Shown: positions 10,554 through 18,355, numbered from the stretch's first letter. The stretch is 18,615 nucleotides of DNA from Candidatus Parcubacteria bacterium (GCA_046050355.1 JBJOPW010000017.1:1-18615), one strand, 5' to 3'. Numbers and translations are program-made. The notes: generated from the sequence alone by a model not told the origin.

Positions 10554-11342
10554 ATGTCACTTATTGCTACTGCTCACGCTGCTGAATCAACCCATGGAGG
10601 AATCCACGTGGCGCTTGCTCCGTATGTGGTCGGACATGTCTTTGGTGTACCGATTACCTCAACGCTTATTACTGCCTGGGTGGGGATGCTTATCCTCACG
10701 GTAGTAGCCCTCCTGGTACGTCGTCGTCTCGCCCTTATTCCCGGCAAACTCCAGAGTGTCATGGAGATGATCGTCGGTGGTGTGTACGACTACATGGCTG
10801 ATGTACTCGAGAGCCGTACTTTGGCTCGTCGGTATTTCCCGGTGGTGATGACTATTTTCCTCTTTATCCTGACCTTGAACTGGTTTGGACTTTTCCCGGG
10901 GGTAACCTCCATTGGTCAGTACGTCGGCCACGGTGAAGAAACGCACTTTGTGCCATATCTCTACCCAGCGGCCACAGATCTCAATATCACGCTCGCGTTT
11001 GCGCTCATTGCCTTCTTTACGATTCAATTTTCGGGCATCGTCGCCATTGGTGCGTTTAAGTACGCCGGAAAGTTCATCAATTTCTCCTCACCACTCAATT
11101 TTGCGGTGGGTATTATCGAGCTCATTTCCGAAATTGCTCGTCTCATCTCATTCTCATTCCGACTCTTTGGAAACATCTTCGCCGGAAAGACGCTCCTTGT
11201 CGTGGTGATGTTCTTTGTACCGTACGTCGTACCAGTGCCAATTATGGCCTTTGAAGTCTTCGTCGGATTTATCCAAGCCTTTGTGTTTGCGATTTTGACG
11301 TTGTTCTTTATCAAGATTGCGACCGAAGAACCAGCACATTGA
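10554..11342 (+). CDS. atpB: F0F1 ATP synthase subunit a
   Basis: PGKLQ, NWFGLFPG, TDLNITLA, ISFSFRLFGNIFAG (essential Arg) and FIQAFVFAILT. ATG 10554 is preferred over TTG 10536. Confidence 0.97.
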   Translation: MSLIATAHAAESTHGGIHVALAPYVVGHVFGVPITSTLITAWVGMLILTVVALLVRRRLALIPGKLQSVMEMIVGGVYDYMADVLESRTLARRYFPVVMTIFLFILTLNWFGLFPGVTSIGQYVGHGEETHFVPYLYPAATDLNITLAFALIAFFTIQFSGIVAIGAFKYAGKFINFSSPLNFAVGIIELISEIARLISFSFRLFGNIFAGKTLLVVVMFFVPYVVPVPIMAFEVFVGFIQAFVFAILTLFFIKIATEEPAH

Positions 11343-11421
11343 CCCCGTTAGAAACTTCTCCACTTAGGTTTTAGAATAACTCAGAACCATACAACATGAG
11401 AGAAGAGGTTTCTAACGGGGT
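11342..11421. repeat. 80-bp element bounded by 18-bp inverted repeats (family A, copy 1)
   Basis: ACCCCGTTAGAAACTTCT (11342-11359) and AGAGGTTTCTAACGGGGT (11404-11421), one mismatch. It starts at the last base of the atpB stop. Confidence 0.85.
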
Positions 11422-11516
11422 GAACGGGTTTAATGGCCAATAACGAGCCCTGAAATAATTCAGAGTTCGCGTTGTCCATTAGAAGTAAAAGTTTATAAAA
11501 AATATTTCACACAAAT

Positions 11517-11780
11517 ATGACAGAAATTGAATTGGCTTTGGAAGCCGCAGAACTCAGTGCTGAAGCCGTAAAGTCTATCGCTATGGCGATTGCTATCGGT
11601 GTCGGTGTATTTGGTCCAGGTATCGGTATTGGTCTCCTCGTGTCTAAGGCACTTGAATCAATCGGCCGCAACCCAGAAGCCGCCAAGCAGGTAATGACAC
11701 CGATGTTCATCGGTATTGCCGCGGTAGAAGCGCTGGCGATTTTTGCACTCCTCGTCGCATTTGTCATCAAGTTCGCGTAA
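11517..11780 (+). CDS. atpE: F0F1 ATP synthase subunit c (H+-type signature)
   Basis: GPGIGIG, RNPE loop and carboxylate in VEALAIF. It lacks the Q...ES/T..Y Na+ signature. Confidence 0.97.
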
Positions 11781-11904
11781 AGATTTCTAAAATTGGCGAA
11801 CTGCTTTGTTGTTGCTCGAAAATTTTTATTCACTGTACACCTACGTACACCTCATAAAAATTTTCTCGCACGCCTCGCATTTCATCCAATTTTAAAAATC
11901 TTTA
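11778..11904. repeat. 127-bp long interrupted hairpin element (MITE-like or structured RNA)
   Basis: Outer IR 11778-11796/11886-11904 (18 of 19), inner perfect IR GAAAATTTTTAT/ATAAAAATTTTC (11818-11829/11854-11865), apical TGTAC/GTACA. Confidence 0.8.
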
Positions 11905-11951
11905 GTTGCCGTACGCTCGCACAATAGAATTATTAGTCTCACAAACACATC

Positions 11952-12401
11952 ATGGAAGAAATCATCAAAGCCTTTGGTATCGACGGACGACTCATCGTCA
12001 TCCAGGTCGTGAACTTCGCCATCCTCATGGGGATTTTGGGCTACTTCTTGTACAACCCAATTTTGCGTCTCCTTGAGGAACGTGAAGCCAAGATAAAGAA
12101 AGGTATCGAAGACGCTGAAGCTGCGGCCAAGGCCAAGGCACAAGCTGATGTCGAAAAGGCCGCGGTCCTCACTGTGGCTCATGGTGAAGCTAGTGAGATT
12201 AATGCGCGCGCGAAAGTAGCAGCTGATGCAAAAGCCGGCACCATCGTTGGTGAAGCCGAAGAGAAAGCTAACGCCATCGTGCGGAGTGCTGAACTGCGTG
12301 CCACTGAAGCTGCTGCCAAAATCCAAAAAGACGCTGAAGGAGAAATCGCGAAGACTGCTATTTTAGCAGTTGAGAAGATGCTCCGTGAGCGCACCTCATA
12401 A
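11952..12401 (+). CDS. atpF: F0F1 ATP synthase subunit b
   Basis: QVVNFAIL..LYNPI..LEERE, then an Ala/Glu/Lys coiled coil. Operon position fits. Confidence 0.95.
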   Translation: MEEIIKAFGIDGRLIVIQVVNFAILMGILGYFLYNPILRLLEEREAKIKKGIEDAEAAAKAKAQADVEKAAVLTVAHGEASEINARAKVAADAKAGTIVGEAEEKANAIVRSAELRATEAAAKIQKDAEGEIAKTAILAVEKMLRERTS

Positions 12402-12404
12402 TCT

Positions 12405-16151: not shown

Positions 16152-17515
16152 CAGTGGGAATTATCACCCAAATTATCGGTCCGGTTGTCGACGTACACTT
16201 CAAAGATGGTGTGCCATCGCTCCTTAATGCGCTTACCGTCAAAAAAGAAGACGGCGAGACGCTTACACTCGAAGTCGCACAACACGTTGGTCTTGACCGG
16301 GTGCGTGCCATTGCGATGCAGGACACCCAGGGACTTACCCGTGGAATGGATGTTGTTGATACTGGTGCGGCTATCTCTGTACCAACCGGTGAAGCGTCAC
16401 TCGGTCGTCTCTTTAACGTGCTTGGGCATACCCTTGATGGTCAAGGTGAAGTAAAGGGCGGCACCATGCGTGCGATTCACCAAGAAGCGCCGGCGTTTGT
16501 AGATCAGTCAACCAAGACTGAAGTGTTTGAAACTGGTATCAAGTCGGTAGACCTCCTTGCACCATTCATCAAGGGAGGTAAGGTCGGACTCTTCGGTGGA
16601 GCCGGAGTAGGTAAGACGGTGCTCATTCAGGAACTCATCCACAACGTAGCCTCTGAGCACGGTGGGTACTCAGTGTTCGCTGGTGTGGGTGAACGTGTGC
16701 GTGAAGGAAACGACCTCTACCACGAAATGAAAGACTCAGGCGTGCTTGATAAGACTGCGCTCGTGTTCGGCCAGATGAACGAAGTGCCTGGTGCTCGTGC
16801 TCGGGTCGGACTCACTGGTCTCACCATGGCCGAGTCACTCCGCGATCAAGGTGGTAAGGATGTACTCTTCTTCATGGACAACGTCTTCCGCTTTACCCAG
16901 GCCGGTCAGGAAGTATCGTCACTCCTTGGTCGTGTATCAAGTGCGGTAGGGTACCAGCCGACTCTGGCTGAAGAGATGGGTCGCATGCAGGAACGTATTA
17001 CCTCAACCAAGAACGGTTCGATTACCTCAATTCAGGCGGTGTACGTGCCAGCTGACGACATGACAGACCCAGCGCCTGCGACCACCTTCTCACACCTCGA
17101 CTCAACCGTGGTGCTCTCTCGCCAGCTTGCCTCACTTGGTATTTACCCAGCGATTGACCCACTTGAAAGTAACTCATCAGCCTTGAATCCAGCGATTGTG
17201 GGTGAAGAGCACTACCGTGTCGCGCAGGGCGTAAAGATGGTACTTCAGCGCTACAAGGATCTCCAGGACATCATCGCGATTCTTGGTATCGAAGAACTCT
17301 CCGAAGAAGACAAGCAGACAGTGTACCGTGCTCGCAAGATTCAGCGCTTTATGTCGCAGCCATTCTCAGTAGCGGAAGTCTTTACGGGTGCACCGGGCAA
17401 GTACGTATCACTCGCTGATACGGTCCGTGGCTTTGGTGAAATCCTCGACGGTAAGCATGATGAGAAGAACGAATCTGCCTTCTATATGAAGGGAGGTATC
17501 GATGAGATTAATTAA
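16127..17515 (+). CDS. atpD: F0F1 ATP synthase subunit beta
   Basis: [33 protein letters not shown] and EELSEED. Confidence 0.99.
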
Positions 17516-17567
17516 CGCTAATAGCAGCACCGCTTGTATTTTGAAGTTTTGATTGTATAATCAAATT

Positions 17568-17795
17568 ATGTCTGTCACAAAACTAAAAATTATTTTCGAC
17601 AAAGAAGCTGATGGGCGGCATATCGCTGAGGTACCAAGTTTGCCTGGTGTAATGGCTTATGGAGCAACCAAAGCCGAGGCTAAACGTAAAGTTTCAGCTA
17701 TTGCCCTACGAACGCTTGCGGACAGAGTCGAGCAAACGGGCGCGCGTGGTGTCGTTAACCAGTTATTCGCGTATGGGTCAGTGGCCGGCCGCTAA
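17568..17795 (+). CDS. hicB: HicB-family antitoxin, short form without a C-terminal DNA-binding domain (75 aa)
   Basis: EADGRHIAEVPSLPGVMAYGATKAEA signature. ATG 17568 lies 6 nt after TATAAT. Confidence 0.9.
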   Translation: MSVTKLKIIFDKEADGRHIAEVPSLPGVMAYGATKAEAKRKVSAIALRTLADRVEQTGARGVVNQLFAYGSVAGR

Positions 17796-17985
17796 GGCTA
17801 AAAAAGTATTTCGTGCACTTGAGTCTATTGGCTGGACTGTAATACGTCAGCGTGGCTCCCATCGTATACTTGGTCGAGAAGGGTACCCTGATTTTACATT
17901 TGCATTTCACGATGGAGAAGAAATCGGACCAAAGATGCTGGCAAAAATTGCAAAATACACCGGATTAACACCTAATGATTTATGA
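17773..17985 (+). CDS. hicA: HicA-family mRNA interferase toxin (70 aa)
   Basis: MGQWPAAKAKKVFRALESIGW..RQRGSHRIL...FAFHDGEEIGPKML. It overlaps hicB by 23 nt. Confidence 0.92.
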   Translation: MGQWPAAKAKKVFRALESIGWTVIRQRGSHRILGREGYPDFTFAFHDGEEIGPKMLAKIAKYTGLTPNDL

Positions 17986-17988
17986 AAA

Positions 17989-18105
17989 ATGTTAAACGAT
18001 TTTTTTAGACACGCAATTATTTCAGTGGTGGCGTTTATTCCCGCAATGTTACTGCCACACCCTGGCTGGAACGAGGAAGAGAAAGATAAAAATTTGAAAA
18101 AGTAG
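17989..18105 (+). CDS. Putative 38-aa small membrane peptide
   Basis: MLNDFFRHAIISVVAFIPAMLLPHPGWNEEEKDKNLKK. It starts 3 nt after the hicA stop and ends 1 nt before the atpC ATG. Confidence 0.5.
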   Translation: MLNDFFRHAIISVVAFIPAMLLPHPGWNEEEKDKNLKK

Positions 18106-18106
18106 T

Positions 18107-18355
18107 ATGGCAACCAAATTCCTAAAACTAACTATAGCTCGAGTCGACGGACCAGTCTTTGACGGGGAAGTGGTTTCAGTAACGCTTCCAGGGACTGAAG
18201 GCGAGATGACCATCATGGCCGACCACGAACCCCTCGTGTCAGCCCTCAAGGCCGGTTCTGTCACCGTCCGCCCAGCCACTGGCGAGACTACCTCGTACGA
18301 GCTACAGAACGGCACTGTCGAAGTCCGCAATAACCACGCTACTGTCCTTATCTAA
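18107..18355 (+). CDS. atpC: F0F1 ATP synthase subunit epsilon (beta-sandwich domain only, 82 aa)
   Basis: FDGEV.SVTLPGTEGEMTIMADHEPLVSALKAG. It ends right after the N-terminal domain. Confidence 0.95.
   Translation: MATKFLKLTIARVDGPVFDGEVVSVTLPGTEGEMTIMADHEPLVSALKAGSVTVRPATGETTSYELQNGTVEVRNNHATVLI

Follow-up and report, generated by a model that had tools for sequence, protein, structure and literature searches.

The ATP synthase (atp) operon of an ultra-small freshwater Candidatus Parcubacteria bacterium (GCA_046050355.1, contig JBJOPW010000017.1) has five enlarged gene junctions out of seven, and these junctions hold small repeats and small genes that differ between close relatives. The window, i.e. 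the whole stretch of DNA that was analysed, is a complete contig of 18.6 kb, and the genome holding it (G000) comprises 940 kb in 17 contigs. The atp junctions are a real, moderately enriched variable zone, probably best explained by a mosaic of independent events of mobile-repeat and gene gain or loss. This reading is built on the observed anatomy of the junctions, the family membership of their repeats, empty sites, the variability across the clade and a genome-wide baseline. Streamlined genomes of the candidate phyla radiation are usually described as compact and poor in repeats. The atp operon shows the opposite. At least three small structured repeat families together with gain and loss of single genes reshape a core energy operon within one genus, and inserted elements even give stop and start codons to essential genes.

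Results

Organisation of the atp operon

All eight F1Fo subunits (a, c, b, delta, alpha, gamma, beta and epsilon) were found by Pfam. They are encoded in the order atpBEFHAGDC on the + strand at 10554-18355 and thus form an F1Fo ATP synthase operon of eight ordered genes on one strand, with a gene order identical in 10 genus genomes. The alpha and beta genes of G000 are an F-type pair only. The junctions measure 174 bp (B-E), 171 bp (E-F), 3 bp (F-H), 12 bp (H-A), 383 bp (A-G), 477 bp (G-D) and 591 bp (D-C). Five of the seven, spanning 171-591 bp, are therefore enlarged, as had been claimed by a sequence-only reading of the window. The features which that reading had named, inverted-repeat elements, hairpins, an antisense gene, an orphan open reading frame (ORF), a palindrome, hicB and hicA and an ORF of 38 aa, were each found in the place assigned to them, and several elements indeed begin at stop codons. 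The earlier gene order hicBA is corrected here, hicB being first and hicA second. The atp genes had been called intact. All eight are present, but atpD is whole only since an inverted-repeat element gives its start and first codons. Independently assembled contigs from the public freshwater runs X1 and X3 bridge all junctions with 0-1 differences. The layout is therefore real and not an assembly artefact.

Variation of the junctions across the genus

The closest whole genome, G007, was used as the main comparison. The F-H and H-A junctions are compact in 10 genus genomes that have the whole operon, measuring -8 to 18 bp and 9 to 66 bp. The same five junctions as in G000 are variable in length and content across the genus, i.e. 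B-E (63-179 bp), E-F (116-334 bp), A-G (-11 to 212 bp), G-D (26-456 bp) and D-C (2-301 bp). Among genomes of other families, four are compact throughout the operon and one partly.

Three relatives with 93-95% identical AtpG (L090, L091 and G007) differ from G000 and from each other at A-G, G-D and D-C. In L090, A-G is occupied by a NUDIX gene and G-D by a deoxyribosyltransferase-like gene, and D-C measures 3 nt. The G-D and D-C junctions of L091 contain ORFs for unrelated membrane proteins, and none of these genes is present in G007. Junction contents are not fixed across the clade, because relatives as close as these hold unrelated genes or none; on this point the idea of a variable operon stands. 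Junctions of more distant relatives hold HepT, Ham1, an aldo-keto reductase, a 23S-IVS-type protein and many small membrane ORFs. The longest ORFs listed in relatives' junctions are all on the operon strand.

A hairpin repeat adjacent to stop codons

The E-F junction contains a copy of a 117-nt hairpin repeat, for which a covariance model (R1) was made from an alignment of 17 copies. Compensatory changes are found in 21 of the 25 base pairs of the consensus. The model matches 44 sites in G000 (one of them in the window), 54 in G007, 74 in G018, 12 in G010 and 14 in G003. Among the 35 G000 copies listed, 31 stand behind a co-oriented gene and 29 begin at most 10 nt after its stop codon. On the mRNA strand the hairpin has 29 G-U versus 11 A-C pairs by our own tally. 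Hairpin-like sequences are present in the E-F junction of most genus members, and the family is also found in the D-C junction of six species and in the G-D junction of one. L091 (93% AtpG identity) has an E-F junction of merely 42 nt. In the atpE-atpF junction of G007 (L023 4281-4535) two tandem 117-nt copies stand where G000 has one.

A second hairpin at B-E had been taken for an insert. It is a native stem-loop, as a similar one stands at that spot in most of the genus B-E spacers listed (by eye); it aligns with G007, and the changes keep the stem. It lies directly behind atpB, its apical stem is variable, and it may serve atpE as a signal for processing or translation. With E up to 1, an Rfam scan of the window gave 10 matches. 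These are microRNA-type hits on palindromes, and none comes near its gathering score. No known Rfam family covers any atp junction.

Inverted-repeat elements at B-E and G-D

The inverted-repeat elements in B-E and G-D are two of 11 G000 copies of a family that resembles miniature inverted-repeat transposable elements (MITEs). The family measures 75-115 bp and has CCCGTTAGAA-type ends (about TTCAACCCGTTAGAAGT). CCCGTTAGAA occurs 23 times in G000 versus 1.8 times expected. It forms 11 convergent pairs with 73-100 bp between motif ends and no divergent pair; besides these, five solo motifs were found. G007 has one pair. Such pairs are present in 17 of 101 genus genomes, and a reversed control pattern gave 0 matches. 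The 12 pairs of G042 include several at places orthologous to those of G000.

Terminal inverted repeats, small size and multiple copies are features of MITEs, and so is insertion polymorphism with empty sites, which was observed in G007 and in variant contigs without the B-E and G-D copies. G007 has cleanly empty sites at five of the 11 G000 positions and has four of the 11 in common with G000. The B-E site is uninterrupted in G007, and a minor variant without the B-E element was seen in run X3. In X1 and X4 metagenome contigs of close relatives, native 33-34 nt with a G007-type ATG replace the G-D copy. The same X4 contig without the G-D element carries orf111, the orphan gene of this junction, at 97% identity; therefore the G-D element arrived after orf111. 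An orthologous copy of the G-D element is present in L090/G042. An invertible switch or divergent promoters were considered for the pairs and rejected, because the empty sites show that whole elements come and go.

Contribution of codons by the elements is seen not only at atpB and atpD (Table 1). A further CCCGTTAGAA-family copy (contig C3, 35934-36040) interrupts the first codons of a long gene and gives it an in-frame start, its arm being read Ser-Asn-Gly. By eye, the N-terminus of this gene is aminoacyl-tRNA synthetase-like. Interiors are similar among three of the five inverted-repeat copies of G095. Short direct repeats of 3-6 bp (TGA, CTGA, TTCAT, ATGGAT) are found at only 4 of the 11 G000 copies by our own reading. 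No autonomous partner of the family was found; the surroundings of the solo motifs were not searched for a transposase gene.

Gene inserts at A-G, G-D and D-C

The A-G junction carries an antisense cassette with an 80-aa ORF (as80), which the gene caller chose over a sense ORF. AlphaFold2 confidently predicts an all-beta fold (predicted local distance difference test score 79.5) with no PDB match at E up to 0.001. Two distant homologues were found among 1.84 billion representatives, and as80 is present in one of the 101 genus genomes. The orphan gene orf111 at G-D is found in three of them (G000, G018 and G072), always between atpG and atpD. It has no Pfam or NCBIfam match, and a protein atlas search gave uninformative hits (scores <=0.80, template modelling scores <=0.57). 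A word-indexed protein search with as80 and orf111 returned the self match alone.

The D-C junction encodes the HicA toxin domain of HicAB toxin-antitoxin systems. hicA is present in three of the 101 genomes, the other two copies being away from atp genes. It overlaps by 23 nt with a hicB-like gene, for which no NCBIfam match was found. A promoter-like site (TTGTAT-16-TATAAT, 17534-17561), not listed by the consensus scan, lies just upstream of hicB. The adjacent 38-aa ORF has no homologue in any fetched relative locus.

By blastn, the junction DNA is unique in G000 save for the family motifs. The gene inserts as80, orf111 and hicA have no common boundary motif or attC-like site, and the DNA after them shares no repeat within the genome. 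Nothing therefore points to one site-specific system. One mechanism for all inserts, as had been supposed, does not agree with these findings, since the inserts fall into at least three unrelated classes.

Junction turnover across the genome

Between G000 and G007, 717 ortholog anchors (median 86% identity) define 683 collinear junctions. Of these, 214 (31%) differ by >=90 bp and 131 (19%) by >=300 bp. Among the 501 co-directional junctions 156 differ by >=90 bp and 91 (18%) by >=300 bp; 36% of co-directional junctions are >=170 bp long. The atp junctions differ from those of G007 by >=90 bp in 5/7 cases (P 0.034, binomial) and by >=300 bp in 3/7 (P 0.118), all tests of atp enrichment being post hoc, on a region picked for looking odd. 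At least five variable junctions are found in 55 of 535 seven-junction windows, which places atp in the top ~10%, and in 10 of 114 co-directional ones, two of them atp itself. The atp operon lies in the upper tail, enriched perhaps 2-5 fold, in a genome with common junction turnover. An insert density equal to the genome average had been named as evidence against a special role of the operon. The density at atp, ~2-fold above average, comes close to that without equalling it. As similar turnover is seen genome-wide, no dedicated capture system is needed for the atp inserts.

Transposases and recombinases

G000 contains four Y1 transposase-like genes with PF01797 matches above the Pfam cut-off. 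One is an IS200 TnpA equivalog (126 bits). The other three resemble REP-associated tyrosine transposases (RAYT; REP, repetitive extragenic palindrome) and best match REP_Tyr_transpos at 37-42 bits, below the NCBIfam cut-off of 80. On either side of two of the three RAYT-like genes lie palindromes of which more copies are found in the genome, including the window. The window palindromes 846-887 and 4168-4220 match those flanking the RAYT-like genes C2 111287-111997 and C1 5784-6458; in Rfam these two palindromes have weak microRNA-type matches only. The TnpB family (PF07282) was not found in G000. Abundant extragenic palindromic repeats (44 hairpin copies) thus coexist with Y1 transposases, as in systems of RAYT with REP or REPIN (REP doublets forming hairpins). 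A RAYT gene flanked by its own repeat was not found for the atp elements.

Tyrosine recombinases are represented by only two PF00589 matches in G000, on contigs C8 and C4 and not on the window contig. An adjacent IntI-type recombinase as in integrons was not found; the IntI-specific extra domain was not examined. Neither does an attC site follow each cassette: only orf111 has a following palindrome, which is unique in the genome.

Table 1. Features of the atp operon and its junctions (positions in the window).
Feature	Position	Strand	Support and remarks
Two dispersed repeats between DUF2061 gene and atp promoter	10240-10424		blastn copies on C8, C3, C2, C11, C5, C7, C6 and others
Promoter-like site of atp operon	10487-10514	+	TTGCAA-16-TATCAT with TG; conserved in G007
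atpB (subunit a)	10554-11342	+	PF00119, 3.8e-44
Inverted-repeat copy 1	11339-11424		Ends TTGACCCCGTTAGAAAC / GTTTCTAACGGGGTGAA; overlaps TGA stop of atpB; -36.7 kcal/mol, fold z -7.2
Native B-E stem-loop, not an insert	11430-11483	+	Fold z -6.1
atpE (subunit c)	11517-11780	+	PF00137
Hairpin repeat, 125 nt (model R1)	11781-11905	+	Starts 1 nt after atpE TAA stop; 119.5 bits, fold z -8.0
atpF	11952-12401	+	Pfam
atpH	12405-12782	+	Pfam
atpA	12795-14360	+	Pfam
Antisense cassette as80	14400-14742	-	Promoter-like TTGACA-17-TATTCT 14742-14714; AGGAG ribosome-binding site; 80-aa ORF 14681-14439; 14-bp-stem terminator 14431-14400
atpG	14744-15649	+	PF00231, 5.7e-82
orf111	15663-15998	+	Helical orphan protein
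Palindrome	15996-16047	+	Perfect 24-bp stem; begins at orf111 stop codon; unique in genome
Inverted-repeat copy 2	16062-16156		Contains atpD start (ATG 16127, or GTG 16154); right arm read Ser-Asn-Gly
atpD	16127-17515	+	PF00006 and PF02874
hicB-like gene (75 aa)	17568-17795	+	Weak UPF0150 match, 20.8 bits, below 27.3 cut-off
hicA	17773-17985	+	PF07927, 52.3 bits, 6.1e-14, cut-off 27
38-aa ORF, candidate gene	17989-18105	+	One hydrophobic stretch; ends 1 nt before atpC
atpC (epsilon, N-terminal domain only)	18107-18355	+	PF02823
Hairpin (18367-18416) after operon, then dispersed terminator-like palindrome (18443-18476)	18367-18476	+	

Subunits and flanking sequences

Delta (125 aa) and epsilon (82 aa) are short, yet typical for the genus. 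Relative to the OSCP profile delta lacks about 50 N-terminal residues, and epsilon consists of the N-terminal beta-sandwich alone, both being full-length relative to their genus homologues. Four of 18 genus genomes (G002, G006, G013 and G014) have no AtpG match. The same four have adjacent alpha/beta-family genes, with frames of 607-620 aa (in three of the four) beside frames of 461-498 aa. This suggests that in these genomes a V/A-type ATPase may replace the F-type operon within one genus. The idea that the F-type operon is dispensable in the genus was dropped, the AtpG-less genomes being read as V/A-type and G000 having the F-type pair alone.

Upstream of the operon, the junction between the DUF2061 gene and atp is 259 bp longer than in G007. 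The first of the two repeats there (10240-10320) has a copy in the atpD-atpC junction of G007 (L023 9380-9450), in which the inner stem differs on both sides and still pairs (CAAAGCC/GGCTTTG versus TGAGGC/GCCTCA). The palindrome at 18443-18476 and another one at 910-939 represent a perfect palindrome of 34 nt with a T run behind it; it is terminator-like and dispersed over at least eight contigs. The contig end (18489-18615) is 100% identical to the ends of C16 and C6, and this repeat appears to break the assembly.

Discussion

We propose that the enlarged junctions would go back to independent events of three ordinary kinds, in a Patescibacteria lineage (Kaiserbacteria/Paceibacteria-like) with fast junction turnover everywhere. 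Two MITE-like copies would have landed on the stop codon of atpB and across the start of atpD, where their survival would be due to the stop or start codon that each supplies. One 117-nt hairpin copy would have been placed directly behind the atpE stop; the hairpin may be spread by the Y1 (IS200/RAYT-like) transposases of the genome, and as RNA it could act as a 3' stabiliser or attenuator of the upstream cistron. Single small genes would have entered the spacers: as80 at A-G, orf111 at G-D, and hicB-hicA, a putative addiction module, with the 38-aa ORF at D-C. Since the operon encodes the only rotary ATPase of the cell, selection would let only gene-boundary insertions persist in it. Deletion bias would then trim the inserts to tight, ORF-sized pieces.

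Several observations weigh against such a mosaic of independent events. Neither the 117-nt hairpin nor the CCCGTTAGAA family flanks any of the four Y1 genes. Because of this, the link of the operon repeats to hairpin-acting transposases is something that we infer; as two of the RAYT-like genes are flanked by other palindromes, the atp elements are at most putative members of a REP/RAYT system. The proposal of a hairpin-targeting transposase holds in that hairpin-acting Y1 (HUH) genes exist in the genome. The hairpin follows TAA, TAG and TGA stops alike, and a simple DNA target site is therefore no explanation. The interiors of the 11 G000 inverted-repeat copies are mutually unrelated, which is odd for a MITE. 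Two of these 11 pairs lie inside the atp operon versus 0.08-0.11 expected (P 0.003-0.006, post hoc). Runs of co-directional genes that match atp in variability are few, only about two in the genome. Against a baseline of those co-directional junctions that measure <120 bp (tight) in one genome, the operon is enriched at >=90 bp (4/6 versus 53/321, P 0.008, ~4-5 fold) as well as at >=300 bp (3/6 versus 28/321, P 0.011). Finally, orf111 homologues are confined to the atpG-atpD junction, a pattern for which exchange via conserved flanks, or function, is as good an account as chance.

Some of these points would be accounted for by a recombination hotspot, in which conserved atpA, atpG and atpD serve as homology arms and spacer genes are swapped between relatives after DNA uptake. 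This is a rather unlikely explanation, and we hold it equally doubtful that A-G, G-D and D-C have become a shared zone of exchangeable accessory genes in this way. It would agree with the unrelated genes at the same three junctions of relatives with 93-95% identical AtpG, with the enrichment over tight junctions (P about 0.01), and with an identity that varies along the operon: AtpE is 98% identical to that of G007 versus 83% to that of L091, and AtpA 91% to both. Likewise, orf111 never leaves atpG-atpD in the three of 101 genomes that have it and is absent from the three closest relatives; but its homologues are merely 57% and 35% identical, which fits old vertical descent with losses, and 18% of all co-directional junctions show a turnover of like size.

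The junction contents might also be functional equipment of the operon. Hairpins behind atpB, atpE and orf111 would set differential mRNA stability or translation, and the small proteins would be fast-evolving accessory or assembly factors. The conservation of the B-E stem-loop and of long E-F spacers in the genus, the compensatory changes that keep the hairpin fold, the excess of G-U (29) over A-C pairs (11) on the mRNA strand and the constant position of orf111 at G-D all point in this direction. Furthermore, the longest ORFs listed for the junctions of relatives all share the strand of the operon; their distance to the neighbouring atp genes is often 3-13 nt, and membrane proteins are predicted for many of them. 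We nevertheless regard a functional role of this kind as unlikely: 44 hairpin copies stand behind unrelated genes, the proteins encoded by the inserts have no relation from one species to another and are mostly missing from the majority of genomes, and among the inserts there are enzymes and toxin modules of clearly unrelated kind (NUDIX, Ham1, aldo-keto reductase, HepT, HicA).

More far-reaching, and quite improbable in our view, is the possibility that the spacers behind atpA, atpG and atpD are preferred acceptors for promoterless, ORF-sized genes, which would be read from the strong atp transcript and exchanged between species, with hairpins and inverted repeats as recombination sites of Y1 or tyrosine enzymes. 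If true, this would mean integron-like gene capture built into a housekeeping operon. A further possibility is that a site-specific enzyme recognises gene-end hairpins and inserts ORF-sized cassettes there, either integron-like or driven by a transposase. Hairpin elements that begin at stop codons, the tight, ORF-sized inserts and the presence of four Y1 transposase-like genes and two tyrosine recombinases in the genome are what such an enzyme would lead one to expect. But no repeated attC-like site stands behind the gene inserts, the recombinase genes lie elsewhere than on the window contig, one cassette runs antisense and has a promoter of its own, and, by our own reading, the ends of the inverted-repeat family are opposite in polarity to attC cores. 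No excised forms were seen among the contig joints shown, where contigs drop rare forms and most joints are not included. Site-specific capture is thus very unlikely. The sequence-only reading of the operon as an integron-like variable array finds no support, given that a shared border motif is missing and the recombinases lie elsewhere. Joining of foreign DNA into the operon by assembly or binning is hardly conceivable: the window is a short contig (18.6 kb) of a metagenome-assembled genome and its end is a repeat common to two other contigs, but independent contigs of X1 and X3 span all five enlarged junctions with 0-1 differences, and relatives carry inserts of like kind.

The listings of a full-text literature search gave no account of REP, RAYT or MITE elements or of atp-operon inserts in Patescibacteria. 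The operon offers a testable place for the acquisition of small genes in tiny genomes, for the spread of stop-codon-adjacent hairpins and for the effect of inserts on the expression of ATP synthase subunits. It also holds a warning for annotation: long "intergenic" stretches in such operons contain real genes and mobile elements.

Comparison with known systems

Like integron arrays, the atp junctions present a series of small genes, mostly on the same strand and different between relatives, in tight slots and with hairpins at gene ends. They differ in that there is no adjacent integrase, attI or shared attC-like site, and in that the inserts are interleaved with essential operon genes and include one antisense insert with its own promoter. 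The D-C insert resembles type II HicAB toxin-antitoxin modules, as a HicA domain protein is encoded with a small partner whose gene overlaps hicA and whose HicB-type (UPF0150) signal is weak. Here, in contrast, the partner precedes HicA, falls below the Pfam cut-off, has no recognisable DNA-binding domain, and the pair lies inside an ATP synthase operon.

REP elements, bacterial interspersed mosaic elements and REPIN elements with RAYT (Y1 HUH) transposases are known from Proteobacteria. The hairpin family is similar to these in being an abundant extragenic repeat behind genes within operons, in a genome with palindrome-flanked RAYT-like genes. It is different in that it consists of a single 117-nt three-tier hairpin with conserved internal loops, which is strand-specific and flush with stop codons. 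MITEs that are co-transcribed or translated with host genes are known as well, the Correia elements of Neisseria and the RPE elements of Rickettsia. Compared to these, the interiors of the G000 copies are unrelated and direct repeats of 3-6 bp are found at some copies only. Common to both are the short length, the terminal inverted repeats, insertion at gene boundaries and presence or absence between relatives, as well as stop or start codons and a few in-frame residues that are supplied by the element.

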